A stretch of 64,000 nucleotides of DNA from Candidatus Latescibacterota bacterium (GTDB lineage Bacteria > Latescibacterota > UBA2968 > UBA8231), in the NCBI GenBank assembly GCA_965221775.1, contig CBDCSU010000006.1, positions 704,001 to 768,000 on the forward strand, given 5' to 3'. Of this stretch, positions 2,729-29,992 are shown piece after piece. The notes beneath the pieces were generated by a model. That model had not been told where the DNA came from. It saw only the letters and a program-made list of their open reading frames with translations, and ran no database searches. Numbering within the stretch: position 1 is the stretch's first letter; every line of letters starts with the position of its first letter. The translations under genes were made by a program, and so were the position numbers.

Positions 2729-2859
2729 CCGAGAACGCTTATGGTCGTGGAAATAGGATTAGAATAGGCCGTTGGTGTTCAATTATCAATTATTCCGCTA
2801 GTCACGGGGATTCGCCACCCAAACCGGTTATCGTCGTGCAAAAGGGGTTACAAGAGGAC

Positions 2860-3969
2860 GTGGACGTTCAATTGCCACTAGAGATCCGGCCATCGGAACG
2901 GCCGGCCGACAGCCCCCCCTGGCCCCGCCTCGGCGCCCGCCGGGGGCTCTTCCCGGCCCTGGCGGCGGCCCTGCTCGGCCTGTTGGCCCTCAGCCTCGGC
3001 TTCGGGTCGGTCTCCATCCCCCTCGACGCGGTGGTCGCCATCCTCTGGGACGGGACCGGCCAGAAGGAGAGCTGGACCCACATCGTCCACGACATCCGCC
3101 TGCCCCGGGCCCTCACGGCGGTCCTGGCCGGCGCCGCCCTGAGCGCCGGCGGCCTGCAGATGCAGACCCTGTTCCGCAACCCCCTGGCCGACCCCTTCAT
3201 CCTCGGCATCAGCGCCGGCGCCAGCCTCGGGGTGGCCCTGGTCGTCCTGGGCACCGGCGTCACCGGGGGCGGACTCCTCGCCGGGCTCGGGTTCCTCGGC
3301 CAGGCCGGAGTGGTGGCCGCCGCCGTGGCCGGAGCGGGGCTGGTCCTCGGCCTCGTGCTGCTCGTGGGCCGGCGCCTGGAGCACGCCATGACCCTGCTCA
3401 TCCTCGGCCTCATGTTCGGCTACCTGACCGCCGCCCTGGTGAGCGTCCTCCTCTACTTCAGCATCCCCGAGCAGGTGCAGACCTACGTCTTGTGGACCTT
3501 CGGCAGCTTCGGCGCCGTCACCTGGGGCCAGCTCGCCGTGCTGGCGCCGGTGGTGCTCGCCGGCCTGGCCATCGCCGGCCTGCTGGTGAAGCCCCTCAAC
3601 GCCCTCCTCCTCGGCGAGACGTATGCGCGCAGCATGGGCCTGGAGGCGCGGCGGGCGCGGCTGTGGATCATCGCCAGCGCCGCCCTGCTGGCCGGGGCGG
3701 TGACCGCCTATTGCGGCCCCATCGGCTTCGTGGGGGTGGCGGTGCCGCACCTGTGCCGCGCCCTCTTCAACACCTCCGACCACCGGGTGCTGCTGCCGGC
3801 CACCCTGATCCTGGGCGCCATGCTGGCCCTGGGCGCCGACCTGGCGGCGCGCCTTCCCGGCAGCCAGGCCACCCTGCCCCTCAACGCCGTGACCGCCCTC
3901 ATCGGCGCCCCCGTGGTCACCTGGATCATCCTGCGCCGCCGCACCCTGCGGCAGGCCTTCGCCGCCTGA
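2860..3969 (+). CDS. FecCD/BtuC family ABC transporter permease
   Basis: IRLPRALTAVLAGAALSAGGLQMQTLFRNPLADPFILGISAGA and GPIGFVGVAVPH. GTG at 2860 follows AGAGGA. Confidence 0.9.
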   Translation: MDVQLPLEIRPSERPADSPPWPRLGARRGLFPALAAALLGLLALSLGFGSVSIPLDAVVAILWDGTGQKESWTHIVHDIRLPRALTAVLAGAALSAGGLQMQTLFRNPLADPFILGISAGASLGVALVVLGTGVTGGGLLAGLGFLGQAGVVAAAVAGAGLVLGLVLLVGRRLEHAMTLLILGLMFGYLTAALVSVLLYFSIPEQVQTYVLWTFGSFGAVTWGQLAVLAPVVLAGLAIAGLLVKPLNALLLGETYARSMGLEARRARLWIIASAALLAGAVTAYCGPIGFVGVAVPHLCRALFNTSDHRVLLPATLILGAMLALGADLAARLPGSQATLPLNAVTALIGAPVVTWIILRRRTLRQAFAA

Positions 3970-6962: not shown

Positions 6963-9900
6963 TCAGCGGATCAGCATGCAGCGCCGGGTCTCGGCGACCT
7001 CACCCGTGGTGAGCCGGTAGAAGTAGAGGCCGCTGGCGACCGGGGCTCCCCGGTCGTCCGTCCCGGTCCAGCGCACCTTGTGCAGGCCCGGGACGCGCGG
7101 CTCGTCGAGGAGCCTGCGGACCCGCTGCCCGAGGAGGTTGTAGATGTCGATGCGCACCCCTCCGGCGGTCCCCAGCCGGAAGGGGATGACCGTGCCGGCG
7201 TTGAAGGGATTGGGGTAGCTCCGCATCAGCTCCGTGGTGCGCGGCACAGCGGAATCCAGGGCCACCGACGTGGGCGGGGATTCCATGGAGAACAGGCCGG
7301 CGCTCGTGGCCACGTAGAGGGTCGACGGATCGAGGGGGTCCACGGCCACGTCGGTGATCCACGGGACCCCGGGATAGCCGGTGTCGAGGGCCCGCCAGGT
7401 GGCGCCTCGGTCGGGGCTGTGGTACAGCTCGCGGTCGGCCGCCAGGTAGAGGGAATTGGGTTCCCGCGGGTGGCCGCGGAGGCGAGCCGTCCTCCACGAT
7501 CCCGACCGGGGCTCCAGGATCCGGCGCCAGGTCCGCCCGGCGTCGGCGGAGACGAAGCACCCCGCGTCGGAGGCCGCGTAGAGGACACCGGGATCTACGG
7601 GATGCCGGGCCAGGTCCAGCCCCGAAGTCCCTGGCTCGAGGCGGCCCACCACCCTCCAGTCGCGGCCGTCCTTGTGGCCGACCCAGAGGGAGTCGCCGTA
7701 GAGGACGGCCAGGCTGTCCCGCGAAGCCAGCAGGGCTCCTCCCGGGCGCAGGTCTCCCATCGACGAATCCTCGCGCTCGGCGTAGGGCCCCACGCTCTCC
7801 CAGGTCCTGCCGTGGTCCGGGCTCATCCACAGGCCCGCGTCGCCGACGTAGATCACGCCCCGTAGAAGACGGTCGGCGAAGATGGAGGGACGTGGCGGAA
7901 AGGGGTTGGCACTGAAGGATGTGCCGAATGCGTTGCTCTCCACGGGCTCCCAGGTGACCCCGCCGGTTGCGCTGCGCATATAGAGCCTGCCGAGAAGGTG
8001 GGCGATCAGCACCTCGCCATCCCATGGGTCCTGGAAGACGACCTCGTAGATGCCCCGGACCCACGGGAAGTACCGCCAACTCTCCAGCCACTGCCAGGCG
8101 CCGCTCCGCTGTCGGTAGAGGCCTATGTAGCGCTCTCCTTCCCTCGACTGGAGGGAGGTCATGTGCAGACGGTCCAGATGGTCGAACCACAAGGTGCCGA
8201 CGGGAGGACCGGTCTCCTCGACCATGGCGGGGGCGGCCGTCTCTCCCCGGTCGGTGGAGACGTACACGCCTCCCGGGGTCTCCACCAGCAGGCCGGAGGG
8301 ACCGAGGGTCCTCACGCCCTCCACATCGTCGTAGGCACCGAACCTGGCGCCGGTCCCCTGCCAGGTCTCGCCGCCGTCGTGGCTGCGGTACAGCCGCCGA
8401 TCGCTGTGGGCGTAGATCAGGCCGGGCTCGTAGTCCGAGACGACCAGACCCTCGATCGCGCTGCCCACGTCCATGTCCAGCATCCGCCAGGTGGCTCCCT
8501 CGTCCGAGGTGTGGCGAAGGCCCCCATAGACAGGCAGGTAGAACCCTCCCGGCGTCCAGGGATCCGGAACGGGAGGGTCCCGGACATACCGAACGGGACT
8601 GGTTCCCACCGGGCTCGCGCCGGACTCGTCGAGCCGCCAGAGCCGGCCTCCCTCCCCTTCCGAGGAGTCGACCCAGGCATAGGTCCGGCCCGGGTCGGCC
8701 GGATGGGATCCGACACCCAGGGCGCGGCCCTCGACGGGGAACTGCCTCCACCTCCGGCCCCCGTCGTCGGAGATGAAGATGGCCCCCTCCGCTGCGGCGT
8801 AGAGTCGGTCCGGGCGATGGTCGTCGACAAAGGCGGCGTCCACGCCCTCGGGCATGGGGACCGCCGACCATGTGGCCCCCCCGTCAAGGGTCGAGTACAC
8901 CCTCTTGAATCCGGAGTGAGGGGGTCCGCCCTCGACGACGTAAGCGGTCAGGGGGTCCTCCGCGTCGCCCCGGACCGTGCTGGTTACATCGAGGTGACTG
9001 AAACGCCAGCCGAAGGTACCGATTTCCGCGAGCATGAAAGGGGCGGGCTGCCAGGTGGCACCTTCGTCGGCAGACCGCCATACGCGCCATCTCGTGCGGC
9101 CGTACCAGGCCCCGCTCGGCGCAGGGTGGATCTGCTGGAGCGGGACTTGCAGGGGGATGCCTGGTCCCTCGGGCCTCCAAGCGCCGGCCAAGGCGGGCAC
9201 GGCGCCGGGGTCCGTCCCCGCGGGCTCCACGACGCGCGGGGGGTCGCCCACGGAGCCGACGCGGACACGCGAAGCCTCGCTCTCGCCTACGTTGCCGTTG
9301 GCGTCCTCCACCACGACGCTGACCGAGTATGCCCCCGCAGGTCCCTCCCACGAGGCCTCGTACACGCCATCCCTTTCGGCCATGGATACCTCCGCCCGCA
9401 GTGTGGAGTCCGGGAGGCCGTGAATCCGGGCGGCCACGCCGCGGATCGGGCTGCCTTCGTGGATGAAGCGGCGGCCCACCCGGACGCTCAGGCCCTCCCG
9501 GGTCGGCGAGAGCCGCACGTACTGCACCCTCGGAGGTGTGATGTCAGGGAGCCGCGTGACCATAAAAGCCGCCGTGTCGGTCCACACCTGGAACCGGGTG
9601 CGCACCTGAAGCACGAAGGTCAGTTCCGTCCCGGCGGCCCCGGCCAGGGCGAGGAACTCCGGCGAGCGCGAGCTGCGGGCGCTCTCCGGTCCCTCGGCGG
9701 CAAAGCGGACGGCCCCGTCGGACACCCGCAGGGCGGCGTTGCCGGGACTGGCCAGATGGAAGCTCAGCGCCGGGAGCAGGTCCGGCGCCGTCGCCGGCAA
9801 TCGGAGATCCAGGTGGAAGAGGTCGCCGGGATCGATGCGGTCCGTCCCCTGCCAGTCCCGCACCTGCCACTGCAGTCCCTCCTGCCGGGCGCTGATCACC

Positions 9901-11666
9901 GGGATCTCCAGATCCCGCCGGCCGATCGTGTCGGCCCCGTCGACGACGGTGAGCCGCAGCCTCGCCACTTGGGAGGAGGAAAAGCCGCCGGACACGCGGG
10001 CCCGGGGCGGGGTCGGCAGGGCGCCTCCCAGGTGGTGGACGTCCGGCCGCAGCTCGGGCAACTCGAAACGAGAAGGGGTGACGGTGAGCAGGTCGTCCAG
10101 CGGCTGCAGTGTCAGGACCGCCCCGCGGGTGGTCCGCCCGCCCCGGTTCACGGGGTCGAATTGCAGCACCCCTTCCTCGCCGGCCACGAGGACGCCGTCG
10201 CCGGTCTGGTCGCGCACCGTCACGACCCCGAACTCGATCCGCGGTCCACCGATCTCGACCCGGGCCTCGAGCCCTCTCTCCGTCACCTCGATGGCGGTGA
10301 CGCTGAACGTGCTCCGGCCCTCCCCGTCGGCGGAACTCGGGTTCGTGTGGGCCGTGAACTGCGTGCGTCCGCCGGGTCCGAAGACGTCGGTGGCGTCGCC
10401 GAGGTTGCCTCCGTGGGCCTCGGCATACGCCTCGTCCCCGGCCCAGAAGTCGAGGTTGTCGCCGCCGTGGAGCGGGTCCGGCGTGCGGCCCATGGGGAAC
10501 CCGCCCTCCTGCCAGCGGCCGTCGGCGCACTCCAGATCGACAACCCAGTGAGACTGGGAGACGTCGCCGGTGCGGTTGCCGGTGACGTGCCAGATGAGCA
10601 GGCCCTCGGCCGGGATCCCCCGGTCGTACCAGGAGGAGCGGGTCCGGTACTCCAGCAGGAAGTACTCCTCCCCGCCGGCGGGGATGCGGACCAGGTCTCC
10701 CGTCCTCGCCACGTCCCGCAGGACGATCCGCTGCGACGGTTGGTCGATCTCGGTGATGGCGGACCATCCGAGGCGGAGACGGCTCCACGCGGAGAAGCTG
10801 ACGGGGCCGTCGCCGCCCCCCCAGCCGAGGGCCCCCCAGCCCATGAGGCCCCAGTTGCCGATGCCCGCCGAATCGTCGGCCGGGTCCCGCGGCTCCTCCC
10901 GGCTGAGATAGGCCACGTTGTAGAGGTCCTTCAGCCCGAAGAGGGTGTGCCCCAGCTCGTGGGCGACGGTGCCCGCCGCCTCCGGGAAGGAGCGGCTCTG
11001 GGCGACCAGGCCGAGGCGATAAGTGATCGGGTTCCCCGCGAGGTCCGGGTCGGCGGTGGCCGCGGGTTCGAGGAGCCCCAGATCGCCGATCCCGGTGGCG
11101 CCCCCGAGGAGGAAGTTGCGCGGCAGGGCGGGTGTGAGAAGGACGAGGAGATCCACCTCTCCATCGTCGTCGCCGGAGTCCGGCCGCCCGTCGGGGCCGT
11201 CGCTGTCGAACCGGGCGAGGTCCAGATCTTCGTCCACCTGGCGCAGGATCTCCCGCACGAAGTCCGCATAGCGGCCGGGTTTCGTGGGACCGGCCGCCAC
11301 GTAGTCGATGGCGTCGCCCGAGGCGAGGTAGCGCCTTGGCGCCACGACGCCGCGGAGGGTCAGGCTGCCGAAGGACATCTCCCGGTAGAAGTGGCTGACG
11401 CTGCCGGGACGATCCGGGTCGAAGAGAGACTCGGCCCAGAAGGGCACGCCGGCCTGCTGGCCGCGGAAGCCGGCGAAGACCACCAGGGCGGTGACCTGCG
11501 AAAGGGGAGTGGAGGCGGCGGCCCCGGCCGGTCTCGAGGCGGCGATCGGGGCCTCGCCCCGGGAGGGCGGGGACGCGGCCCCGGCGGTCTGGGTGGAGAC
11601 CGCCAGAAGACCTGCCAGCAGCCAGGGGGATCCCCGGCGCCCCCTGCAGCCGGGGATGTCGCCCAT
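6963..11666 (-). CDS. Secreted M6 (immune inhibitor A-like) metalloprotease with BNR/Asp-box propeller and C-terminal FlgD-Ig/T9SS-like domain
   Basis: Signal-like N-terminus; AHELGHTLFGLKDLY and GNWGLMGWG; repeated SxDxGxTW Asp-boxes; YPNPFN..ASGLYFYRL..MLIR. Start is inferred. Confidence 0.85.
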   Translation of the reverse strand: MGDIPGCRGRRGSPWLLAGLLAVSTQTAGAASPPSRGEAPIAASRPAGAAASTPLSQVTALVVFAGFRGQQAGVPFWAESLFDPDRPGSVSHFYREMSFGSLTLRGVVAPRRYLASGDAIDYVAAGPTKPGRYADFVREILRQVDEDLDLARFDSDGPDGRPDSGDDDGEVDLLVLLTPALPRNFLLGGATGIGDLGLLEPAATADPDLAGNPITYRLGLVAQSRSFPEAAGTVAHELGHTLFGLKDLYNVAYLSREEPRDPADDSAGIGNWGLMGWGALGWGGGDGPVSFSAWSRLRLGWSAITEIDQPSQRIVLRDVARTGDLVRIPAGGEEYFLLEYRTRSSWYDRGIPAEGLLIWHVTGNRTGDVSQSHWVVDLECADGRWQEGGFPMGRTPDPLHGGDNLDFWAGDEAYAEAHGGNLGDATDVFGPGGRTQFTAHTNPSSADGEGRSTFSVTAIEVTERGLEARVEIGGPRIEFGVVTVRDQTGDGVLVAGEEGVLQFDPVNRGGRTTRGAVLTLQPLDDLLTVTPSRFELPELRPDVHHLGGALPTPPRARVSGGFSSSQVARLRLTVVDGADTIGRRDLEIPVISARQEGLQWQVRDWQGTDRIDPGDLFHLDLRLPATAPDLLPALSFHLASPGNAALRVSDGAVRFAAEGPESARSSRSPEFLALAGAAGTELTFVLQVRTRFQVWTDTAAFMVTRLPDITPPRVQYVRLSPTREGLSVRVGRRFIHEGSPIRGVAARIHGLPDSTLRAEVSMAERDGVYEASWEGPAGAYSVSVVVEDANGNVGESEASRVRVGSVGDPPRVVEPAGTDPGAVPALAGAWRPEGPGIPLQVPLQQIHPAPSGAWYGRTRWRVWRSADEGATWQPAPFMLAEIGTFGWRFSHLDVTSTVRGDAEDPLTAYVVEGGPPHSGFKRVYSTLDGGATWSAVPMPEGVDAAFVDDHRPDRLYAAAEGAIFISDDGGRRWRQFPVEGRALGVGSHPADPGRTYAWVDSSEGEGGRLWRLDESGASPVGTSPVRYVRDPPVPDPWTPGGFYLPVYGGLRHTSDEGATWRMLDMDVGSAIEGLVVSDYEPGLIYAHSDRRLYRSHDGGETWQGTGARFGAYDDVEGVRTLGPSGLLVETPGGVYVSTDRGETAAPAMVEETGPPVGTLWFDHLDRLHMTSLQSREGERYIGLYRQRSGAWQWLESWRYFPWVRGIYEVVFQDPWDGEVLIAHLLGRLYMRSATGGVTWEPVESNAFGTSFSANPFPPRPSIFADRLLRGVIYVGDAGLWMSPDHGRTWESVGPYAEREDSSMGDLRPGGALLASRDSLAVLYGDSLWVGHKDGRDWRVVGRLEPGTSGLDLARHPVDPGVLYAASDAGCFVSADAGRTWRRILEPRSGSWRTARLRGHPREPNSLYLAADRELYHSPDRGATWRALDTGYPGVPWITDVAVDPLDPSTLYVATSAGLFSMESPPTSVALDSAVPRTTELMRSYPNPFNAGTVIPFRLGTAGGVRIDIYNLLGQRVRRLLDEPRVPGLHKVRWTGTDDRGAPVASGLYFYRLTTGEVAETRRCMLIR

Positions 11667-11867
11667 GAGGCTCGCTCGGATCAACAGGGTTGCGGTGGGT
11701 GGACCGCCCCCCGCCCAAGGCACGATGGACGGGGAGCGGCCCCGGCCATGCGAGGCCCGGTCGCATGGCGCAGGTCGAAGATCCACCCCAAGGAACCTGC
11801 AAAGGTGGACCTTGACCAGATCCGGCGACCGGGCCGAGAGGCGGCGGTCCGGTCAGCCGCCGCGCTC

Positions 11868-11978
11868 TCAGGCGGCGAGGGAGAGGGTGGCGTAGTGGGC
11901 GAAGGTGGACAGGCCGGCGAAGCACAGACTGATGGCCACGGGAATGGCGATCTCTCCGGTGATGCGAAGGATCCTCAT
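11868..11978 (-). CDS. 36-aa hydrophobic small protein (sigma54 peptide family, member 1)
   Basis: MRILRITGEIAIPVAISLCFAGLSTFAHYATLSLAA; RBS GAGGAGG; sigma54 promoter at 12026-12041. Confidence 0.7.
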   Translation of the reverse strand: MRILRITGEIAIPVAISLCFAGLSTFAHYATLSLAA

Positions 11979-12025: not shown

Positions 12026-12041
12026 TGCAACCGACGTGCCA
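12026..12041 (-). promoter_or_regulatory. sigma54 (RpoN) -24/-12 promoter
   Basis: Minus strand reads TGGCACGTCGGTTGCA, a full match to TGGCACG-N4-TTGCW. Confidence 0.85.
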
Positions 12042-12104: not shown

Positions 12105-12124
12105 GGTGTTCACACGTGAACACC
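12105..12124. promoter_or_regulatory. Candidate enhancer (UAS) for a sigma54 activator
   Basis: Perfect 9-bp inverted repeat GGTGTTCAC-AC-GTGAACACC containing TGT-N10-ACA, between two divergent sigma54 promoters. Confidence 0.6.
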
Positions 12125-12244: not shown

Positions 12245-12260
12245 TGGCACAGGCCTTGCG
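12245..12260 (+). promoter_or_regulatory. sigma54 (RpoN) -24/-12 promoter
   Basis: TGGCACAGGCCTTGCG. Confidence 0.8.
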
Positions 12261-12294: not shown

Positions 12295-12414
12295 ATGGTA
12301 CGGACGAAGCTGTTGCAGGACTTGGCGCTGCCAGGTGCCGTGACTCTGAGCTATGCCTACGCCGCCGTCATGGCTTTCACGAGGCTCGGACAGGTGCTCG
12401 AGAACCTGGCCTGA
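12295..12414 (+). CDS. 39-aa hydrophobic small protein (sigma54 peptide family, member 2)
   Basis: MVRTKLLQDLALPGAVTLSYAYAAVMAFTRLGQVLENLA; RBS AAGGAGGA. Confidence 0.7.
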   Translation: MVRTKLLQDLALPGAVTLSYAYAAVMAFTRLGQVLENLA

Positions 12415-18610: not shown

Positions 18611-19327
18611 CTACAGGCCCGCGGGCAGGAGAACCAGCTCCGGCACCCGCGCCCGTCCCGGCGTGGCGGCCACGTACAGGCAGGCGTCGGCCACGTCCTC
18701 CGGCTGCAGGGCTTTCGCCATGACCTCGGGCGGGGTCGGCGCCGGCCGCTGCAGGACGAGAGGGGTGTCGCACAGGCCGGGGAAGATCACGGTGGTGCGG
18801 ATGCCGTTGTCGCGCTCCTCCTCGAAGGTCCCGTGGGCGAGGCCGGAGAGGCCGCACTTGGTGGCCTGGTAGGCGACCCCCGAGACATCCGGCTTCTGCA
18901 CGCAGCCCGAGGAGAGGTAGATGATCAGCCCCGAGCCCCGGGCGCGCATCGCCGGCAGCACCGCCTGGGTGCAGTGGAAGGCGCCGGTGAGATTGGTGGC
19001 GATCATGTCGTTCCAGGTCTGGCGGGACAGGACCTGCAGGCTGCGCTCCGGGATGTTGGTCCCCGTGGCGTAGAGGAGGATGTCGATGCGGCCGAAGGCG
19101 TCGAGAGCGGTGCGGACGAGGCCGTCCACCTGGGCCGGATCGGTCGCGTCGGCGGGACAGGCCAGGGCGCCGTCGCCGATCTCGGCGGCCAGCGCCTCCA
19201 GCTCGCCGGCGCTGCGCGCGGCCAGCACCACCTTCGCCCCGGCTCCGGCATAGGCCCGCGCCGCCGCCCTCCCCATCCCCGAGCTGCTGCCCACGACCAC
19301 CGCCACCCGGCCGCTCAGTGCCGCCAT
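18611..19327 (-). CDS. SDR family oxidoreductase
   Basis: VAVVVGSSSGMG, YQATK (YxxxK). Confidence 0.9.
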   Translation of the reverse strand: MAALSGRVAVVVGSSSGMGRAAARAYAGAGAKVVLAARSAGELEALAAEIGDGALACPADATDPAQVDGLVRTALDAFGRIDILLYATGTNIPERSLQVLSRQTWNDMIATNLTGAFHCTQAVLPAMRARGSGLIIYLSSGCVQKPDVSGVAYQATKCGLSGLAHGTFEEERDNGIRTTVIFPGLCDTPLVLQRPAPTPPEVMAKALQPEDVADACLYVAATPGRARVPELVLLPAGL

Positions 19328-19441
19328 CGTCTCTCCTCCTTGCGGCCGGCGCGCGAACCTGCGGCCCTGGCGTGCCCGCCGCCGGCAACCCACACGTGGC
19401 CCGACATGGTCACCCGCGAGTCGACGGCGGCGTCCGACACG

Positions 19442-20656
19442 TCAGCGGACGTTGTAGTAGGTGGCGTAGAAGTCACGGCTCTCGCAACGCACCCAGTCGC
19501 GGTCGCGGCCCCTCTCGCCGAAGCGCCCGAGACCGAACTCCGCCAGGTCCTCCCCCGGGTCGCCGTCGAGCACCCAGCCCGCGAGCCAGCGGCCCACCGC
19601 GGCGGAGCCGGCAATGCCGAGGGCGGCGCAGGCCGAGGCCACGAAGAGCCCCTCCACCGCCGGCACCGGCCCGAGCAGGTAGCTGCCGTCGGGGGCGAAG
19701 GAGGTGACCCCCTGGCAGTACTCGGCCACCTCCAGCCCGGGCAGGGACGGGAAGAGCGGGGCCAGCCGGTCCGCGGCCTCGGCGATGGTGCCGCGCGGCT
19801 CGGGCAGGTCGGAGGTGCGGAAGCCCTCGTCCAGATCGACGAGATGCGGGTCCGGCTCGAAGAAGCCGTAGAGGTAGCCGCCGCGCTCCGGGCGGACGTA
19901 GCAGCTCGCCTCGGTGACGCGGACCACCGGGTGGTCGGCGGAGATGCCGGCGGCGGCGGTGCGGGCGCGCTGATGGCGGATCGTCTGCAGGGGCAGCTCA
20001 TCGGCGCCGAAGCGGCGCAGGAGCCGGCTGCTCCAGGGGCCGGCGGTGAGGACCACGCGATCGGCGGCGATCGTTCCGGCGGCGGTGCGCACGCCGCGCA
20101 CGGCGCCGCCGTCGACATCGAGACCCGCCACCTCGGCGGAGCACTCGATGCGGACCCCCAGGTCGCGGGCGGCGGCGGCGTAGGCGCGGGCGCACCGGCC
20201 GGGGTCGACGTAGCCGTCGCCGGTGACGTAACAGCCGCCCTCGAGGCGGGATACGTCCATGCCGGGGCACAGCCGCTCCATCTCGCCGCGGGAGACGAAG
20301 GCGGCCTCGACGCCGCTGGCCCGGGCGCGCTCGATCAGGCCTTCGTAGGCGGCCATCCGCTCCGGCGTCAGGGCCGCGAGCAGGCTCCCCGGCCGGCGCA
20401 GGCCCGGGTCGTGGCCGGACCGCTCGCCGAAGCCGGAGAGCAGGTCGAGGGCGTAGCGGATCGCCCGGCACATGGCCGCCGAGCTGCGCACCTGGCCTAC
20501 GAGACCAGCGGCGCGGGGCGTGGTCTCGGCCGCTACTTCGGGATTGCGCTCGAGAACGCGAACGGTTCCCGCGCCGCGCTCGGCCAGGTGCCAAGCCGTG
20601 CTGAGGCCCCAGATGCCGCCGCCGACGATGATGATGGTTTCCGTGTCGCTGCTCAT
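19442..20656 (-). CDS. FAD-dependent oxidoreductase (DAO/sarcosine oxidase beta/dimethylglycine dehydrogenase-like)
   Basis: IIIVGGGIWG, ETTPRAAGLV, SFAPDG. Confidence 0.88.
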   Translation of the reverse strand: MSSDTETIIIVGGGIWGLSTAWHLAERGAGTVRVLERNPEVAAETTPRAAGLVGQVRSSAAMCRAIRYALDLLSGFGERSGHDPGLRRPGSLLAALTPERMAAYEGLIERARASGVEAAFVSRGEMERLCPGMDVSRLEGGCYVTGDGYVDPGRCARAYAAAARDLGVRIECSAEVAGLDVDGGAVRGVRTAAGTIAADRVVLTAGPWSSRLLRRFGADELPLQTIRHQRARTAAAGISADHPVVRVTEASCYVRPERGGYLYGFFEPDPHLVDLDEGFRTSDLPEPRGTIAEAADRLAPLFPSLPGLEVAEYCQGVTSFAPDGSYLLGPVPAVEGLFVASACAALGIAGSAAVGRWLAGWVLDGDPGEDLAEFGLGRFGERGRDRDWVRCESRDFYATYYNVR

Positions 20657-20743
20657 GGCGGAAGACTACCTTGGCAGGAGCCTGGAGGCAATCGGCCTTG
20701 CCTCTCCAGCGCCGGCTCCCTCTCTCGATGGGAGACACAGACG

Positions 20744-23700
20744 ATGAAAGATCAACTACGACATCGATCACGCTCCCTGGCCCTGGCCGGGCTCATCCTG
20801 GCTGCGATACCGGCCGCGGATGCTTCACCCCCCCAGTCTGCCGGCGGGCATGCCCCTTTCAGCCGGGTCGTCTACGACGGGGAATCCGGCCAGGCCCCCT
20901 CCGCTTCCAAGGCGGCGGCCCTGAAGGACTGGCCGCAGCGCACCGTGAGGATGATCTACTTCCGGCCCGAGGACCGCCCCTTCCGCGCCGAGGTGGTCGA
21001 TTCGATGAAGGCTGCCATCGTGCAGATCCAGGCCTTCTTCGCGCAGCAGATGCGGGAGCACGGGCATGGGGACGTGACATTCCAGTATGAGACCGACGCT
21101 CAGGGGGAGCCGCTCGTCCACCGTGTGGTTGGAGAGCATGCCGACGAGCACTATATCGAGCAAGGGGGAGCCGTGCAGGAGGTTTCACAAGCCGTCCTCA
21201 GGGGAGGACGGGACATCGACCTTGTCGTCATCGACCAGAGCTCGCCTGTACTGCCTTCCCCCAGTGGAGGCGCAGGAGGCCTGGCCTTCATCGGACAGGT
21301 GAATCGTCAACCCTTCGGGACGGCCCTGGTCCCGGCCTCGGCCCACTGGACCACGGCTGCCCACGAGCTCGGCCATGTCTTTGGACTGGACCACGACTTC
21401 AGGGATGGCACGTACATCATGTCCTACGGTTTCCAGTCCCCGCTTCGCCTGTCCGCATGCAGCGCCGGGCTCCTGACCGTGCATCCCTACTTCAACCCCG
21501 ATGTCCCCGGGGCGCCGGGTCCGCCGACGACGACCATCGACTTCACCTCCCCTCCCGGCTATCGGGCCGGTTCGAGCAGCCACCCCGTGCGACTCACCGT
21601 CGGTGGCTCGGCGGGGCTCCACCAGGTGCTTTTCGTCGGAGCCACAAACCCCCCCCACTTCGCTGCCGGATCCCTCGAAGTACTGGGGTGCCGCTCCTAC
21701 TCGGGGGAGAGCGCGGCGGATGTCGAGTTCGACTACGACGGCGCCGTTCCGTCCGAGCCCCTCACGAGTCTCTCGGATCCCGTCGTTCACCCCCTTGGCG
21801 TGCGGGCCGTCGACCAATACGGCAGATGGGTCGTAGAGGGCTTCGTCGTGCATCAGCTCTCCCCCCTGCATATCGGCTCGCTGGAAGAGCCCGGGGCGGT
21901 CTCTGCCCTGGCCTTCGCCCCGGTGGGCACCTCGGTGGCCGCGGCGGGGGACCCCCTCTTCGGGCTCTGGGACGTGCAGACGCGGCAGATGGTGGCCAGC
22001 TTCGGAGAGGCCCCCGCAGCGTCGGTGGCGTTCTCGCCGGACGGCGCCACCCTGGCCACCGCGGCGTACGACGGCAAGGTCAGGCTGTGGGACGTGTCCG
22101 CGCGAACGATCACCAGCACCCTGGAAGGTCGGTCGCGATTCGCCGCCTCCCTGGCCTTCTCCCCCGATGGCGCCACCCTGGCCGCCGTGTCATCGAGGAG
22201 CACGGTCACCCTCTGGGACCTGGAGACGGAGACGGAGACCGCGGTCCTCAGTCATGATGCCCCGGTCTCCTTCGTGGCCTTCTCTCCCGACGGCTCCACC
22301 ATCGCCACCGCCACATGGAGTCCCCGGGTCCACCTCTGGGACGCAGCCGGGACCCACCTGGCCGTCCTCGCCGGACACGGGGAGTGGACCAACGGGCTGA
22401 CCTTCTCCCCCGACGGCGCCACCCTGGCCGCCTCGGGGACGGACGGTCTCGTCAAGCTCTGGGACGTGGCGGCCCGAAGGGATGTCGCCGACCTCGAGCA
22501 CAGGCGGATCGTCAGGTCCATGGCGTTCTCTCCCGACGGCGCCACCCTCGCCTGCGCCTCGGGATACATCGTCAGGCTCTGGGACGCGGGGACGCGGCTT
22601 CGGATCGACGTCCTCCCAGACGGCCAGTTCGCCGAGGCCGTCGACTTCTCCGCCGATGGCCGGACCCTGGTCTCCGGGACCCGGAAGGGGCTCGAGTTGT
22701 GGGATGCCTCGGAGTGGCTGCAGCCTCGGCCCCATGGGCTGGTGATGATCTCGGGAGACGGACAGGAAGGGGCTCCCGGCGCCGTCCTCGAGGATCCCCT
22801 GGTGGTGGAAGTGCAGGATCAGTACGGGGTCGCCATGGCGGGACAACCCGTCGTGTTCACCGTCGCCCAGGGCGATGGAAGGCTGGGCGGCAGGTTCACC
22901 ATGGAGAACACGGAGACCGATGCCAACGGCCGTGCGGAGAGCCGCCTCACCCTCGCCCCCGGCCCGGGAGCGGTCACCGTCGAGGCGAGGCTCTTCGGGT
23001 CAGATCCCGTGGTCTTCGGAGCCGCCGCCATCGGGGAACCTCCCGTCGGGGATGGAGATCCTCTCAAGTGGCACCTGCCCGACCGCGCGACGGCGCGCCT
23101 GGGCAAGGGCGCCACGGGACTGGGATTCGGCTCTCCCGTGGCCTTTACCCCCGATGGCCAACGCTTCGCCGTGGCCACCAGCATCGGCATCTGGGTCTAT
23201 GATTCGACGACCGCCCGTGAGCTCGCCCTGATAGCCGGTGCCTCGGCGACCACCCTGGCCTTCTCCGCCGACGGGACCACCCTCGCCGCCGGAGCGGGTG
23301 GGACGATCAGGCTGTGGGACGTGGCCAGTGGTGAGAGCAGGGCCAGTCTGAGAGGACATGACTCGGTATGGTCGGTGGCCTTCTCTCCCGACGGCAGCAT
23401 GCTCGCCTCCGCCTCCGGGACCATGGTCAAGCTGTGGGACGTGGCGACGCGCCAGAACACGGCCACTCTCGACGGGCTTGGCGGCACGGTGATGTTCCTC
23501 CACGGCGGCGCCACCGTCGGCGTCCTGGGCTGGGATGGCATCCTGAAGCTGTGGGATGCCACCAGCGAACCGATCCGGTCGCTCTTCGAGGTGCAACTCG
23601 GATGGGGTCCGTCCACGTCCTTCCCCATGACCCAGATGGCCTTCTCCCCCGATGGTGTCACCCTCGCCGCCGGTTGGGGAGACACGATCAGGCTGTGGGA

Positions 23701-26020
23701 CGTCGCGGCGGGAACCTCCCTCCCTTCTCTGGACAATGAGACCGGCATAACCTCGGTGGCCTTCTCTCCGCAGGGCACGACCCTGGCCGTCGGCTCACTA
23801 GGTGAGATCAAGCTGTGGGACGTGGCGGCGGGGAGCATCGTCACCACCTTCGAGGTACGGACAGGCTGGATGGGCCACCTGGTCTTTTCCTCTGACGGGT
23901 CCACCCTTGCCTCGGCATCGTCGAACACGATCACCCTGTGGGACCTGGCGTCCGGGACAGAGCTCGCCACCGTCGATCACTCCACCGAGGTCTATCCCGT
24001 GGAGTTCTCTCCGGGCGATGCCTCCCTCGTCGTCAGGTCGTCGGACGGCGTCCTGCTCCTGGAGGTCTCCACCGCGAATCTCGCCCGCCTTCGGGGCCAT
24101 ACGCACGCGACCGGAGTCAATTCCGTGGCCTTTTCCCGGGATGGCGCCACCCTCGCCACCGGTTCGATCTTCGTTGCAAACGTGTGGGACATCGTCACCG
24201 GGAGAAGCGTGGCCACCGCCACTCATCCAGCCGAGGTCAGCGCCGTGGCCTTTTCCCCCGTTGACGACGTTCTCGCCTTTGGCTCCTATGACGACACAAT
24301 CAGGCTGTGGGATGTCGAGAGGCGCGGCGACATCGCCAGCCTCGCAGGAGGGTTCGACGGCGTCATCTCTCTGGCCTTCTCCCCGGACGGAGCTACTCTC
24401 GCCGCGGGATACCAGGAGGGCATCGTCAACCTGTGGGATGTGGCCAGGACCCAGGCCCGGCTTGCCCTCGAGGGACACATGAGCGGGGTGCGGTCCGTGG
24501 CCTTCTCCCCCGATGGCGCCACCCTCGCTACCGGCTCCGTGGACGAAACCCTCCGGCTGTGGGATGTGGAGACGGGGACGGAGACCGCCCTTCTCGAAGG
24601 CCACGACGGTTGGGTCAATTCCGTGGCCTTTTCCCGGGACGGAACCCTCGCCGCCGCATGGGGGCCCACCGTCCGGGTATGGGATGCGGGGACCTGGGAA
24701 GAGGCCGCCGATCCCATGAGGCTTGGGGGTTGGGGCTATGCCGTAGCCTTTTCCCCCGATGGCACCAAACTCGCCGCCGGTTCCGGGAACACCGTTCTGC
24801 TGAGAGAGACCGGGACCTGGAGATCGCTCGCTACCTTCGATGGGCACACGGAGAGGATCAATTCCCTGGCCTTCTCACCCCATGGCGCCACCCTTGCCAG
24901 CGGCTCCCGGGACGGCACCGTTCTGCTGTGGGACATCGCCCCGGAGCCCCAGGCTCTGAGGAGGGTTTCGGGCGACCGCCAGGAGGGGCTCCCGGGGGCG
25001 CTCCTGGCCGACTCCCTCGTCGTCGAGGTGCGCGACCAGTATGGGGACCTGCTGGAAGGGGCCCAGGTGAATTTCGCGGTGACCAGGGGAGATGGAACCT
25101 TGACCGCGGCTACCGTGATCACGGATTCCATGGGGAGGGCCGCCACCTTCCTGACCTTGGGGAGCCGACAAGGCCGCAACACCGTGACGGCAACCGTGGC
25201 GGACGTCTGGCCGGTGACTTTCCGGGCCACCGGGCTGCCCATTCCCGGGGCTCTGATCAGACTCTCCGGAGAGGAGCTGGAAGGGCCGGCCGGCTCCGCC
25301 CTGGCCGAACCGTTCGTCGTCGAGGTCAGAGACCAGGTCGGCTCCCCATTGGCAGGGGCCGTGGTCACCTTTTCCGTCACCGGCGGCGGAGGGACGCTCT
25401 CCGCTGCCACCGACACCACGGATGCCGACGGCCGGGCCGCCACCAACCTGACCCTGGGCGAGGAACTGGGGGCCAACTCCGTCGAGGCAACCGTAGCCGG
25501 ACTCGAGCCGGTGACCTTCACGGCCACGGCCAGGGCTACCCCCGACTTCGACGGCGACGGCGAGGTCGGCTTCGACGACTTCTTCCTCTTCGCCGAGGCC
25601 TGGGGAGACAGCGACCCCCGCTTCGACCTGGACGGCAGCGGCTCGGTGGACTTCGCCGACTTCTTCCTCTTCGCCGAGAGCTTCGCCCAGCCGGCGCGGG
25701 CCAAGCTCATGGCCCTCGCCCGCGAACGGATCGGACTTCCCGATGGCCCCCAGCTGGGTCAGAACTGGCCCAATCCCTTCAACAGCGAGACCGTCCTCTC
25801 CTGGTTCGTGCTGCAGCCGGGGCCGGCGCGCCTGGAGGTGTTCGCCCTCACCGGGCAGCGGGTCGCGGTCCTGGCCTCGGGACACCACGAGGCCGGCCTC
25901 CACCGCCTCCACTGGGACGGGCGCGACCACCAGGGACGGCCCCTGGCCAGCGGCACCTACCTCTACCGGCTGGTCACCGCCCAGGAGGTATGGGCGCGCA
26001 AGCTGGTCCTGATCCGCTGA
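20744..26020 (+). CDS. Giant secreted protein: metzincin domain, WD40 propellers, Big_1 Ig domains, EF-hand/dockerin-like motif, FlgD-Ig/T9SS-like C-terminus
   Basis: Signal peptide; HELGHVFGLDH with Met-turn IMSY; many SVAFSPDG..LWD repeats; DFDGDGEVGFDDF..DLDGSGSVDFADF; WPNPFN..KLVLIR. Confidence 0.88.
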   Translation: MKDQLRHRSRSLALAGLILAAIPAADASPPQSAGGHAPFSRVVYDGESGQAPSASKAAALKDWPQRTVRMIYFRPEDRPFRAEVVDSMKAAIVQIQAFFAQQMREHGHGDVTFQYETDAQGEPLVHRVVGEHADEHYIEQGGAVQEVSQAVLRGGRDIDLVVIDQSSPVLPSPSGGAGGLAFIGQVNRQPFGTALVPASAHWTTAAHELGHVFGLDHDFRDGTYIMSYGFQSPLRLSACSAGLLTVHPYFNPDVPGAPGPPTTTIDFTSPPGYRAGSSSHPVRLTVGGSAGLHQVLFVGATNPPHFAAGSLEVLGCRSYSGESAADVEFDYDGAVPSEPLTSLSDPVVHPLGVRAVDQYGRWVVEGFVVHQLSPLHIGSLEEPGAVSALAFAPVGTSVAAAGDPLFGLWDVQTRQMVASFGEAPAASVAFSPDGATLATAAYDGKVRLWDVSARTITSTLEGRSRFAASLAFSPDGATLAAVSSRSTVTLWDLETETETAVLSHDAPVSFVAFSPDGSTIATATWSPRVHLWDAAGTHLAVLAGHGEWTNGLTFSPDGATLAASGTDGLVKLWDVAARRDVADLEHRRIVRSMAFSPDGATLACASGYIVRLWDAGTRLRIDVLPDGQFAEAVDFSADGRTLVSGTRKGLELWDASEWLQPRPHGLVMISGDGQEGAPGAVLEDPLVVEVQDQYGVAMAGQPVVFTVAQGDGRLGGRFTMENTETDANGRAESRLTLAPGPGAVTVEARLFGSDPVVFGAAAIGEPPVGDGDPLKWHLPDRATARLGKGATGLGFGSPVAFTPDGQRFAVATSIGIWVYDSTTARELALIAGASATTLAFSADGTTLAAGAGGTIRLWDVASGESRASLRGHDSVWSVAFSPDGSMLASASGTMVKLWDVATRQNTATLDGLGGTVMFLHGGATVGVLGWDGILKLWDATSEPIRSLFEVQLGWGPSTSFPMTQMAFSPDGVTLAAGWGDTIRLWDVAAGTSLPSLDNETGITSVAFSPQGTTLAVGSLGEIKLWDVAAGSIVTTFEVRTGWMGHLVFSSDGSTLASASSNTITLWDLASGTELATVDHSTEVYPVEFSPGDASLVVRSSDGVLLLEVSTANLARLRGHTHATGVNSVAFSRDGATLATGSIFVANVWDIVTGRSVATATHPAEVSAVAFSPVDDVLAFGSYDDTIRLWDVERRGDIASLAGGFDGVISLAFSPDGATLAAGYQEGIVNLWDVARTQARLALEGHMSGVRSVAFSPDGATLATGSVDETLRLWDVETGTETALLEGHDGWVNSVAFSRDGTLAAAWGPTVRVWDAGTWEEAADPMRLGGWGYAVAFSPDGTKLAAGSGNTVLLRETGTWRSLATFDGHTERINSLAFSPHGATLASGSRDGTVLLWDIAPEPQALRRVSGDRQEGLPGALLADSLVVEVRDQYGDLLEGAQVNFAVTRGDGTLTAATVITDSMGRAATFLTLGSRQGRNTVTATVADVWPVTFRATGLPIPGALIRLSGEELEGPAGSALAEPFVVEVRDQVGSPLAGAVVTFSVTGGGGTLSAATDTTDADGRAATNLTLGEELGANSVEATVAGLEPVTFTATARATPDFDGDGEVGFDDFFLFAEAWGDSDPRFDLDGSGSVDFADFFLFAESFAQPARAKLMALARERIGLPDGPQLGQNWPNPFNSETVLSWFVLQPGPARLEVFALTGQRVAVLASGHHEAGLHRLHWDGRDHQGRPLASGTYLYRLVTAQEVWARKLVLIR

Positions 26021-28017: not shown

Positions 28018-28589
28018 CCCGGGACGAAGCCCTCGCCCTGATGCACGAGCACACGGCGTCGGAGCCCCTGCGCCGGCACATGTACGCCGTGGAGACCGCC
28101 ATGCGCGCCTGCGCCCGCCGCCTGGGCGAGGACGAGGAGGCCTGGGCCACCGTGGGCCTGCTCCACGACTTCGACTACGAGGCCCACCCCAACGAGGCGC
28201 GCTCCCCCACCGAGGGGCACCCGGCCTTCGGCGTGGCCCTGCTGCGCGAGCGCGGCTACCCCGAGCCCCTGTGCCGGGCGATCCTCGGACACGCCACCTA
28301 CAGCGGCGTGCCGCGGGACACGCCCGTGGCCCGGGCGCTGTTCGCCGTGGACGAGTTGTGCGGCTTCCTCGTGGCCTGCGCCCTCGTGCGGCCGTCGAAG
28401 AGCCTCGCCGACCTGGGCGTGCGCAGCGTCCGCAAGAAGCTCAAGGACCGCGGCTTCGCCCGCGCCGTCGACCGCGGCGAGATCCGCCAGGGGGCCGAGG
28501 AGTTCGGGGTGGATCTGGACGAGCACATCGACTTCGTCATCCAGGCGCTGCGTCCCGAGGAAGGGCGCCTGGGGCTCGGCCCCGGCTGA
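28014..28589 (+). CDS. HD (HDIG) domain protein
   Basis: [29 protein letters not shown]; GTGA overlap with msrAB. Confidence 0.88.
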
Positions 28590-28612
28590 AGCGGTGCCGA
28601 GCCCCTCGCTGA

Positions 28613-28696
28613 TCAGGCGCCGAAAAAGAACGGGCCGAGGAAGCAGACGACGATGGCGAAGGGAGCGGCGATCTCGGCGGGGCGGAAGGTCTGCAT
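28613..28696 (-). CDS. 27-aa hydrophobic small protein (sigma54 peptide family, member 3)
   Basis: MQTFRPAEIAAPFAIVVCFLGPFFFGA; RBS AAGGAGGA; sigma54 promoter at 28741-28755. Absent from the ORF track. Confidence 0.7.
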   Translation of the reverse strand: MQTFRPAEIAAPFAIVVCFLGPFFFGA

Positions 28697-28740
28697 GACA
28701 TCCTCCTTCGGAACGGTGGTGAGTTGTCGCCCTCACCACC

Positions 28741-28755
28741 GCAAGCGCCGTGCCA
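28741..28755 (-). promoter_or_regulatory. sigma54 (RpoN) -24/-12 promoter
   Basis: Minus strand reads TGGCACGGCGCTTGC, followed immediately by the 9-bp inverted repeat GGTGGTGAG-N8-CTCACCACC (28715-28740). Confidence 0.82.
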
Positions 28756-28840
28756 GACCCGTTCTCCCGGGGACCGCTCCGGCCACGCGAGTCAGAGGTG
28801 GCCGTCTCCGCACACGGGTGTCCGTTGGCGGACGCCCGCC

Positions 28841-29992
28841 TCAGGGCAGCGCCTCGATAAGCCGGCTCACGTCTTCCTGATTGTTGTAGACCGAGGGCGA
28901 CAGCCTCAGCTTGTCGCCGAAGCGCATGGCCACGTGCACGCCGGCCTCGCGGGTGCGCCGCACGGCCGCCTCCGGGTCGGGGGTGACGAAGGCGAGGATG
29001 GGGCTCTCGTTGCCGCGCGGCGTGATCGGCCGGTAACCCTTGGCGGGCAGCTCCTCCTGCAGGCGGTCGGTGAGGCCGCGCACGTGGCCGCGGATGTTCT
29101 CCACCCCCAGGTCGAGGATGTAGCGCAGGCTCTGCTGGGCGGCGATCACGCCCTCGTAGGAGGGATAGCTCACCTCCCAGGCCGTGGCGTCGTCCCGGGT
29201 CATGACGCTGACCTCGGGGCGCCCGCTCTCCGCGTCCCTCCAGGGCGGGTAGTTGAGGCGGACCGAGCCCGAGGGCTGCGACGCCTTGACCACCGTGTGC
29301 TGCAGGTCCCGCCGCACGTAGAGGAAGCCGAAGCCCTTCACCCCCATGAGCCACTTGAAGGTCGAGCAGGCGGCCATGTCGATGCCCATGGCGCCCACGT
29401 CGATGGGCACGGCGCCGACGGCCTGCATGATGTCGGCGTAGAGGTAGGCGCCGCGGGCGTGGGCCAGCTCGCTCAGGGCGGCCACGTCGGCAAGCAAGCC
29501 GTTGACGTTGGAGACCAGGGCCACCGAAACCAGCCGCGTGTCCTTGTCGATGGCGGCGGCCATGGCATCCATGTCGATGCGCCAGTCGCGGTTGCGCACG
29601 ATCCGCACCTCCAGGCCGGCGGCCTCCCTCACTTTGTAGTTGCAGAGGCATGCCGAGAAAGCCAGGTCGTTGGTAACGATGTTGCCGCCGGCGAGGTGAT
29701 CGGCCATGCCGTTGAGCACGTTGCTCTCGGCCTCCACGGTGCTGCGGGCGAAGGCGATCTCCCCCGGGTCGGCGTGGATCAGCCGCGCGAAGAGGTGGCG
29801 CGCCTCGTCGCGGGGCGGCGCCCAGTCCGGCCACCAGGGATCGCCCACGTTGTGGGTGACCCAGTCGACGTAGCGGTGCAGGGCCGCGGAGGTGTGGACG
29901 CTGACGGGGTGGGAGGAGGCGTTGTCGAAGTAGGCGGCGGTGCGCGCCCGGGGGAAGTCGGCGCGCACGCGATCGAAGTCGGGAGTGGTCAC
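28841..29992 (-). CDS. Aminotransferase class V-fold PLP enzyme (cysteine desulfurase/selenocysteine lyase-like)
   Basis: YFDNASS, YADIMQAVG, CSTFKWLMG, RLSPSVYN. Confidence 0.88.
   Translation of the reverse strand: MTTPDFDRVRADFPRARTAAYFDNASSHPVSVHTSAALHRYVDWVTHNVGDPWWPDWAPPRDEARHLFARLIHADPGEIAFARSTVEAESNVLNGMADHLAGGNIVTNDLAFSACLCNYKVREAAGLEVRIVRNRDWRIDMDAMAAAIDKDTRLVSVALVSNVNGLLADVAALSELAHARGAYLYADIMQAVGAVPIDVGAMGIDMAACSTFKWLMGVKGFGFLYVRRDLQHTVVKASQPSGSVRLNYPPWRDAESGRPEVSVMTRDDATAWEVSYPSYEGVIAAQQSLRYILDLGVENIRGHVRGLTDRLQEELPAKGYRPITPRGNESPILAFVTPDPEAAVRRTREAGVHVAMRFGDKLRLSPSVYNNQEDVSRLIEALP

Follow-up and report, generated by a model that had tools for sequence, protein, structure and literature searches.

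The question raised by this locus is what function could be served by a hydrophobic peptide of 27 residues encoded behind its own sigma-54 promoter. The locus lies at 28571-28840 of a 64,000-nucleotide stretch of a Candidatus Latescibacterota genome (the window; contig CBDCSU010000006.1, equivalent to G000:C6:704001-768000 in our numbering, where G000 is the window's genome of 5.36 Mb with ~70% G+C). The original prediction regarded it as the third, dispersed member of a sigma-54-driven peptide family. Our analysis placed it as group D of four paralogous units (A to D). The reading that we hold, with about even confidence and from sequence evidence, is that these units encode lineage-specific micro-proteins of a sigma-54 regulon which may modulate a co-induced exporter or its kinase. 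The parts of the group D unit were as follows.

28613..28696, minus strand: group D open reading frame (ORF), 27 codons plus stop (codons 28616-28696, stop 28613-28615, ATG 28694-28696)
28701..28708, minus strand: ribosome-binding site AAGGAGGA, 4 bases 5' of the ATG
28715..28740, minus strand: 9-bp stem-loop found by folding, right behind the -12 box and hence at the transcript's 5' end or close to it
28741..28755, minus strand: sigma-54 promoter, exact TGGCAC-N5-TTGC
28756..28768, minus strand: purine-rich tract GGGAGAA..GG..C against the -24 box, common to paralog groups A, C and D
28798..28835, no strand: putative upstream activator site, a doubled inverted repeat (GTGTYCG-N4-CGRACAC at 28818-28835 plus an imperfect repeat at 28798-28815)
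28571..28605, minus strand: GC-rich hairpin directly past the group D stop, without a U-run
28841-29992, minus strand: aminotransferase class V gene, neighbour of the unit

The ORF, the ribosome-binding site and the TGGCAC-N5-TTGC element of the original prediction were each found where it had put them, and the sigma-54 dependence that it proposed was supported by the exact consensus promoter and by the presence of rpoN in the genome (one Sigma54_DBD match, E 5e-61), together with enhancer-binding activators (15 strong Sigma54_activat matches). The GGAGGA core of the ribosome-binding site was unchanged in all five group D units. The 5' stem-loop appeared in the minimum-energy and centroid folds alike and was kept in 5/5 group D units; in the G006 copy its pairing was preserved, as judged by eye, despite changes on both arms. 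The predicted fold also paired the ribosome-binding site with the 3' part of the ORF. The hairpin past the stop, with a stem kept in four of the five units and variable loop-proximal bases, overlapped the end of a convergent HD-domain-like gene (named by eye) and is a probable bidirectional terminator. With a stem-loop at its 5' end and a hairpin past its stop, the group D unit thus forms a compact monocistronic cassette, flanked by the aminotransferase class V gene on one side and the HD-domain-like gene on the other. The putative activator site lies 60-80 bp 5' of the -24 box and begins 6 bases past the aminotransferase stop codon.

The other members of the family were located as follows.

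11868..11978, minus strand: paralog group A, 36-codon ORF plus stop
12027..12041, minus strand: sigma-54 promoter of paralog A
12106..12123, no strand: palindromic putative activator site common to units A and B, which are divergent, with 82 bp to the A promoter and 139 bp to that of B
12245..12259, plus strand: sigma-54 promoter of paralog B
12295..12414, plus strand: paralog group B, 39-codon ORF plus stop, divergent from A
about C6:998.6 kb: paralog group C, outside the window, 266 kb away

Group D and the two units at 11.9-12.4 kb proved to be genuinely paralogous. The likeness that had been noticed between group D and 11868-11978 in the DNA upstream of the -24 box was real, both having a GAGAA..GG..C tract abutting that box. 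Group B was the most divergent paralog, with the core D-L-A-L-P. The whole genome contained only 20 exact TGGCA[CT]-N5-TTGC sites, and when the 5.36 Mb were translated in six frames, the peptide motif given in the original prediction turned up four times and no more. All four occurrences sat behind one of these 20 sites and had a ribosome-binding site and an ATG of their own, an arrangement far beyond chance. A profile search of the genome also returned four family members and no further ones. Since the motif count and the profile search gave four copies only, three of them in the window, the suggested "genome-wide multicopy family" was wrong and a small paralog family, restricted to one sub-clade of one genus, was right.

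Searches outside the genome gave the same picture of a narrow family. Among 40 relatives, members at E<=2e-7 were found only in the same-genus genomes G002, G004, G006 and G007; the other matches had E>=0.037 and lay within long ORFs or were very short, and five further same-genus genomes (76-96% complete) yielded no family member. When the 17-member profile was compared with 1.84 billion protein representatives, 14 matches were obtained at E<=0.001, of which 13 clearly belonged to groups A-D and one was a 1270-residue repetitive protein. These 13 relatives carried no meaningful names, the sole named cluster member being an evident clustering oddity. When 185,579 species genomes were scanned with a pattern built on a narrower alignment, nothing was found beyond the same four genomes, the records of which are labelled as Gemmatimonadaceae or Candidatus Latescibacterota metagenome-assembled genomes. 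A degenerate core-codon pattern run on metagenome contigs, a collection that may omit records near the window's genome, hit 41 loci, none of the family; used as a control, these random core-codon matches had a sigma-54 promoter within 200 bases upstream in 0/41 cases. Searches of a library of open-access literature returned no paper on these micro-proteins. By these searches, the micro-protein family is new and very narrowly distributed.

To judge whether the ORFs are translated, 17 units from five genomes (G000, G002, G004, G006 and G007) were compared, with three to five closely related sequences per group. The promoter TGGCA[CT]-N5-TTGC, the ribosome-binding site, the ATG and the open frame were kept in 17/17 units. 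Three group D orthologs encoded identical peptides, with synonymous/non-synonymous changes of 5/0, 3/0 and 4/0, at third positions only, and the window copy differed from its orthologs in lacking 3 bases, which left the frame intact. The counts of variable columns at codon positions 1/2/3, taken across the four ortholog groups, were 25/23/43 (binomial p=0.004), and the indels among orthologs were in frame. The third-position bias and the in-frame indels together indicated that the units are most likely translated. G+C content was 0.72-0.96 at third positions and 0.41-0.74 at positions 1-2, as expected for genes in a genome of this composition. Six RNA-library runs held small shares of the region as assembled contigs. 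A 1554-base contig of a relative spanned the group D unit, included the extra codon of the orthologs and reached into the genes on both sides, and one run held a low-depth contig across the ORF. Among the units, the G002 group A unit (L021) had a premature TGA, 4 codons early, that shortened the peptide from 36 to 32 residues, and the group C units of G002 and G007 (L022 and L030) had a 5' untranslated leader about 48 bases longer than other group C units.

The peptides of 27-39 residues shared one plan: the N-terminus was short and for the most part basic, next came an acidic residue with I/L-A-x-P behind it, and then an uncharged stretch. In the motif E-I-A-x-P the Pro was invariant and the Ala nearly so, and each paralog had its own conserved C-terminal tail. 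The uncharged stretch covered 19-27 residues in 17/17 peptides, with a best 19-residue Kyte-Doolittle mean of 1.40-2.30. In group D it was a 19-residue predicted helix that reached the C-terminus (best 19-residue hydropathy 2.15). The net charge of the N-flank equalled or exceeded that of the C-flank in 16 of the 17 peptides (0 to +1 against 0 in group D), and this charge distribution suggests that the N-terminus lies inside. These features fit single-pass inner-membrane micro-proteins, as predicted from the sequences, and group D is very probably a real coding gene whose product has a membrane helix.

The peptides matched nothing described before. Pfam and NCBIfam gave no match to the four peptides at E<=10, a PDB profile search gave chance matches only (E 0.25-1), the best ESM Atlas score (0.82) was under the useful range, and Rfam covariance models run over the whole window had 0 matches at the gathering score. 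The statement that no known family carries the motif was thus borne out, and a Flp pilin, named in the original prediction as an example of a known family, was set aside because there was no Pfam Flp_Fap match at E<=10 and no G/xxxxEY motif. Of the roles that it had listed, membrane-protein regulator fits best, because a MacB-type exporter and a two-component system have the same putative activator site, as shown below. As to the roles of pilin or ribosomally synthesised and post-translationally modified peptide (RiPP), no RiPP-modifying enzyme, pilus gene, double-glycine leader or exosortase was seen beside the units, the genome-wide search having been for exosortase only. A leader-peptide or attenuator role was rejected, since the hairpins come after the ORFs and the genes beyond them are either convergent or unconserved.

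Alignment of groups A, C and D at the -24 box revealed a conserved inverted repeat, GTGTYCG-N4-CGRACAC, with an imperfect second repeat 2-4 bases on. In these groups the repeat pair lay 51-82 bp upstream of the promoter (51-139 bp over all units), and it was conserved in the orthologs. Group B shares the palindrome of group A in the window, and the group B unit of G002, which is on another contig, has its own repeat. The untranslated leaders of groups A, C and D also shared a conserved GAGGGCG.CAACTCAC stretch. Genome-wide, the repeat consensus had 131 matches with up to 2 mismatches, and it stood within 160 bp upstream of 6/20 exact sigma-54 sites, against about 0.08 expected. A relaxed scan allowing one promoter mismatch gave 8 matches and none in the reversed genome; the one at C6:202771 looks spurious. 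The exact promoter-plus-site pattern misses the group C unit of G007 because the upstream repeat is degraded there. From these alignments and counts, group D is probably a member of a regulon defined by the shared site. Four exact sigma-54 sites (C4:263679, C5:50087, C4:914098 and C5:586730 of G000) had no activator site; the genes behind them, named by eye, were two pspA-like, one groES-like and one like an extracytoplasmic-function sigma factor. Membership of the peptide units in a Psp regulon was ruled out, as the pspA-like promoters lack the activator site.

Outside the peptide units, the repeat stood beside a sigma-54 promoter at three places only in G000: an adaptor/ATPase operon, a permease array and a helix-turn-helix (HTH) gene.

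C6:2124780, minus strand: promoter of the adaptor/ATPase operon, sigma-54 promoter plus repeat
C6:2160206, minus strand: promoter of the permease array, TGGCGC-N5-TTGC with both repeats
C6:2131.8-2160.1 kb (L114 and L115): about 11 tandem duplicated FtsX-domain permeases (ADOP/MacB-type), all on one strand
C5:978747, minus strand: promoter of a Fis-type HTH gene of 64 residues (L033:2988-3179, C5 near 978.5 kb), an exact sigma-54 promoter of its own with the doubled site

The operon at C6:2124780 encoded a HlyD-family adaptor of 448 residues and an ATP-binding cassette (ABC) ATPase of 244 residues. The best models of the ATPase were DarC/DarD-like, MacB and LolD, all scoring under their cut-offs, and for the adaptor and ATPase together the best models were those of peptide export (DarC/DarD-like, MacB and a lactococcin-972-type exporter), with 152 bits against a cut-off of 450 and 263 against 375. 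Divergent from the operon lay the gene of an NtrC-type response regulator of 461 residues (L035:5900-7282; Response_reg, Sigma54_activat and HTH_8), and beside it that of a histidine kinase of 452 residues (PAS, HisKA and HATPase_c). The two N-terminal hydrophobic helices of the kinase are joined by about 6 residues, so that it lacks an outside sensor domain. The permease array was 4-33 kb from this two-component locus; its permeases aligned full-length with the ADOP model (E 1e-74 to 1e-82, under its cut-off), and its promoter and site were kept in G002, G006 and G007. Promoters with the 15-mer of the HTH gene were found in the same three genomes. The 64-residue protein was 33% identical over 40 residues to the C-terminal Fis-type HTH of the regulator (E 0.004, a single comparison) and could be a decoy or feedback factor.

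The distribution of the regulator followed that of the peptides. Its orthologs (92-98% identity) were found in exactly the four peptide-bearing relatives, and the five same-genus genomes without peptides had regulator paralogs of <=42% identity only. In G006 the group D gene was about 5 kb from the regulator. The repeat in the intergenic region between regulator and adaptor was kept in the four same-genus genomes and in G011, a member of another genus whose regulator was 67% identical. The promoter-plus-site pattern was counted six times each in G002 and G007, four times in G006, twice in G004 and once in G011 (at the transporter operon), with 0 in the reversed-pattern controls. This distribution fits a two-component/exporter module that predates the peptides and a regulon that was enlarged in the window's clade: G011 has the regulator and the site at a single promoter, and the window's clade would have added site-promoter-ORF-terminator cassettes.

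Several further features were observed around these loci. In G004:C118 and G002:C22 (L119 and L120), past the kinase gene, there was another activator site with a sigma-54 promoter, followed by a second gene with a receiver-like start; the relaxed scan picked up no equivalent of this site in the window's genome. Past the ABC ATPase gene and on the same strand, L035 contained a 412-residue ORF (1879-3117, minus strand) with a weak match to a class A beta-lactamase-like domain (Pfam Beta-lactamase2, E 3e-12). A second cluster of FtsX-type permeases at G000:C6:302-310 kb stood beside another sigma-54 activator gene, with weak repeat matches nearby, and may be a paralogous module.

The cassette anatomy, the paralogy and orthology, the coding signature, the shared cis-site and the identity of the co-sited genes can be read directly, and from them a mechanism may be proposed. 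Each paralog would be a self-contained module of doubled repeat, sigma-54 promoter, 5' stem-loop, ribosome-binding site, ORF and terminator hairpin. Once the kinase is triggered, the phosphorylated NtrC-type regulator would bind the repeats and all of the promoters would fire together. The micro-proteins would then insert in the inner membrane with the N-terminus inside and serve the exporter or the kinase as an accessory or as a feedback partner, as AcrZ does with AcrB and MgrB with PhoQ. Such a partner-modulating function, argued by analogy, is tentative, and we would put it clearly below an even chance. A more specific version is unlikely: the four micro-proteins would be dedicated membrane-embedded adaptors of a Bce-like sensing and export machine under sigma-54 control, each of which could either steer the single adaptor/ATPase pair to a subset of the ~11 "orphan" permeases or report transporter activity to the loop-less kinase. 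In a bolder variant, they could be orphan signal-peptide-like baits that are extracted and released as hydrophobic signals.

A number of points weigh against the reading of the micro-proteins as sigma-54-controlled modulators. Transcription, translation, membrane insertion and binding are all predicted from the sequence, and the substitution counts come from just three to five close relatives per group. The RNA-library contigs over group D extend into the convergent neighbours and hence show neither a transcript of the unit nor its start or strand, and the fold of the whole group D transcript was not more stable than shuffles (z = -1.55). The classical hydropathy threshold for a membrane helix is 1.6, and group C, at 1.40-1.59, falls under it. 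Phylogeny confounds the joint presence of regulator and peptides, as the five carriers are close kin in which many genes will have such a profile, and the activator site is tied to the NtrC-type regulator by position alone in a genome that encodes 14 other sigma-54 activators. Because of this kinship and these other activators, our assignment of the regulator at the C6:2124780 locus as the activator of these sites is a leaning somewhat above even and not more. Finally, the sequence evidence does not separate an accessory subunit from cargo, a toxin or a membrane protectant. A complex prediction with two copies of kinase residues 1-120 and the group C peptide scored 0.00, without controls, and is evidence neither way.

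A first alternative is that the peptides are cargo of the co-sited exporter. On this account the micro-proteins would be hydrophobic, signal-peptide-like peptides that are extracted and exported by the MacB-type machinery as signals or antimicrobials, comparable to leaderless multi-peptide bacteriocins or peptide pheromones. The peptide units share their site with an exporter for whose adaptor and ATPase the top-scoring models are those of peptide export, and the four related peptides end in many cases in small residues (..A-x-A or ..G-A). However, those transporter scores were all under the curated cut-offs (152 vs 450 and 263 vs 375 bits), the genes are dispersed instead of clustered with the exporter, and neither a leader or double-glycine motif nor, beside any unit, a peptidase-domain ABC protein or immunity gene was seen. 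The neighbours of the units were the aminotransferase, the HD-domain-like gene, a secreted peptidase and a TonB-type receptor (the second and the last named by eye), with no export or immunity cluster. The one long unbroken hydrophobic stretch of low net charge also has the look of a membrane anchor and not of a soluble amphipathic bacteriocin, and we consider the cargo explanation unlikely. We give a similarly low probability to stress-induced membrane-active peptides in the style of type I toxins or of TisB and YohP, which would depolarise or remodel the membrane without a specific partner. Tight off/on control is typical of sigma-54, and the size, the single helix, the monocistronic layout with a structured 5' end and the pairing of the ribosome-binding site with the 3' part of the ORF would all suit such peptides. 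The literature describes small membrane proteins of this sort (PMC12719787). Against them, no Pfam or NCBIfam toxin family was matched at E<=10, the fold was not significantly more stable than shuffles, and four conserved paralogs with their own C-terminal tails suggest specific contacts instead of generic membrane damage.

The remaining two explanations deny the peptide its role. If the RNA were the functional product and the ORF incidental or secondary, the units would be comparable to the Qrr genes, which are multi-copy, sigma-54/LuxO-dependent small RNA genes. The unit of about 150-170 bases with its own activator site, sigma-54 promoter and terminator resembles them, and the 5' stem-loop and the leader stretch of groups A, C and D are conserved. 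The absence of Rfam matches at the gathering score, the third-position excess, the synonymous-only divergence of group D, the in-frame indels, the strong ribosome-binding site at proper spacing with an open frame in 17/17 units, and the conservation of the peptide across paralogs whose DNA has diverged make this very improbable. Chance ORFs, annotation noise behind the promoters of other genes, or dead remnants would be consistent with the very narrow taxonomic range and with the premature stop of the G002 group A ortholog, which costs it four residues. They are hardly credible when 4/4 occurrences of the motif in the genome are behind perfect promoters, the ORFs are kept in five genomes with a coding signature, and hairpins directly follow the ORFs with the next genes convergent or not conserved. 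The RNA and noise explanations are thus clearly weakened, and the cargo and toxin-like ones are not separated from the modulator reading.

Small membrane proteins are under-annotated, and outside the enterobacteria and firmicutes that serve as models few families are known. In the present case the family belongs to an uncultured lineage, and its sequence was enough to place it in a defined regulon, with a site, a promoter, a candidate regulator and kinase, and an exporter; what is new is the shared doubled repeat linking micro-protein units to two-component and exporter loci. Several environmental phyla have large numbers of ADOP-type duplicated permeases, to which, to our knowledge, no signal, regulator or partner has been assigned. 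Concrete hypotheses follow from a cis-element shared by an ADOP array, four micro-protein genes, a single adaptor/ATPase pair and a two-component locus. Were the adaptor version true, ADOP permease arrays would gain their first functional and regulatory handle, and the regulon would be the first under sigma-54 to be made largely of micro-protein genes. Elsewhere in the window, two large frames were recorded. A very large ORF at 6963-11786 (minus strand) combined an M6 peptidase with BNR/Sortilin and a C-terminal FlgD_ig domain. The over-extended frame at 18833-26020 (plus strand) appeared by eye to be secreted, with many WD40-like repeats and a C-terminal tail like that of the ORF at 6963-11786.

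Comparison with known systems gave partial likenesses in each case. Flp/Fap pilins are also short and have a hydrophobic helix, close to the start of which an acidic residue is conserved, but no Flp_Fap match and no G/xxxxEY motif was found here, and no tad-type genes were seen beside the units, the genome not having been searched for them. The gene pspG of the enterobacterial envelope-stress regulon is a monocistronic, PspF-dependent sigma-54 gene for a small membrane protein. Its layout resembles that of the present units; PspG, however, has about twice their length, and its expression requires PspF. The two pspA-like genes here have sigma-54 promoters without the activator site. In the Bce-type modules of Firmicutes, an intramembrane-sensing kinase is combined with an FtsX-domain ABC transporter, and here too a two-helix kinase with almost no outside loop is encoded beside FtsX/MacB-type ABC transporter genes, which it would control. 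The differences are the NtrC-type regulator with sigma-54 in place of an OmpR-type one, the periplasmic adaptor and the ~11 duplicated permeases; we know of no micro-proteins in Bce modules.

In its regulatory layout the system comes closest to the PEP-CTERM box with PrsK-PrsR, for which the part of Haft et al. 2006 (PMC1569441) drawn on here describes many dispersed single-gene operons, each with an activator motif and a sigma-54 motif. In both systems an NtrC-like response regulator goes with a membrane kinase, and the regulator here scored best against the PrsR model, although its 402.8 bits were below the TIGR02915 cut-off of 502.6. Exosortase_EpsH had 0 matches in the genome, which is 96.8% complete. 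PEP-CTERM identity of the peptides was ruled out by the lack of an exosortase, by the lack of a Pfam match at E<=10 and by the reversed order of the motif: each peptide is a complete protein, 27-39 residues long, that has its basic residues at the N-terminus and the motif where the helix begins, and is not a C-terminal PEP-helix-Arg sorting tail, and the co-sited genes encode an ABC exporter instead of exopolysaccharide functions.

For the products, the paradigms are MgrB and AcrZ. Small membrane-protein regulators of this kind, including SafA and UgtS, are often lineage-specific according to the sections of PMC12648545 used here. They differ from the present peptides, to which they have no sequence similarity, in being controlled by sigma-70 with PhoP or MarA, whereas sigma-54 with an NtrC-type regulator is predicted here; four paralogs each have their own promoter module in this genome, and the link to a partner is inferred from sequence. 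As a case of small membrane proteins under proposed two-component control the system is coherent, its function being deduced and its organism uncultured. It shares with MgrB-PhoQ and AcrZ-AcrB, as described in the same sections, a product of <50 residues with a single predicted helix, a gene apart from that of its proposed target, a predicted common regulator and a lineage-restricted range, and the candidate partners here, the two-helix histidine kinase and the MacB-type exporter, would be linked to the micro-proteins by the shared cis-site.

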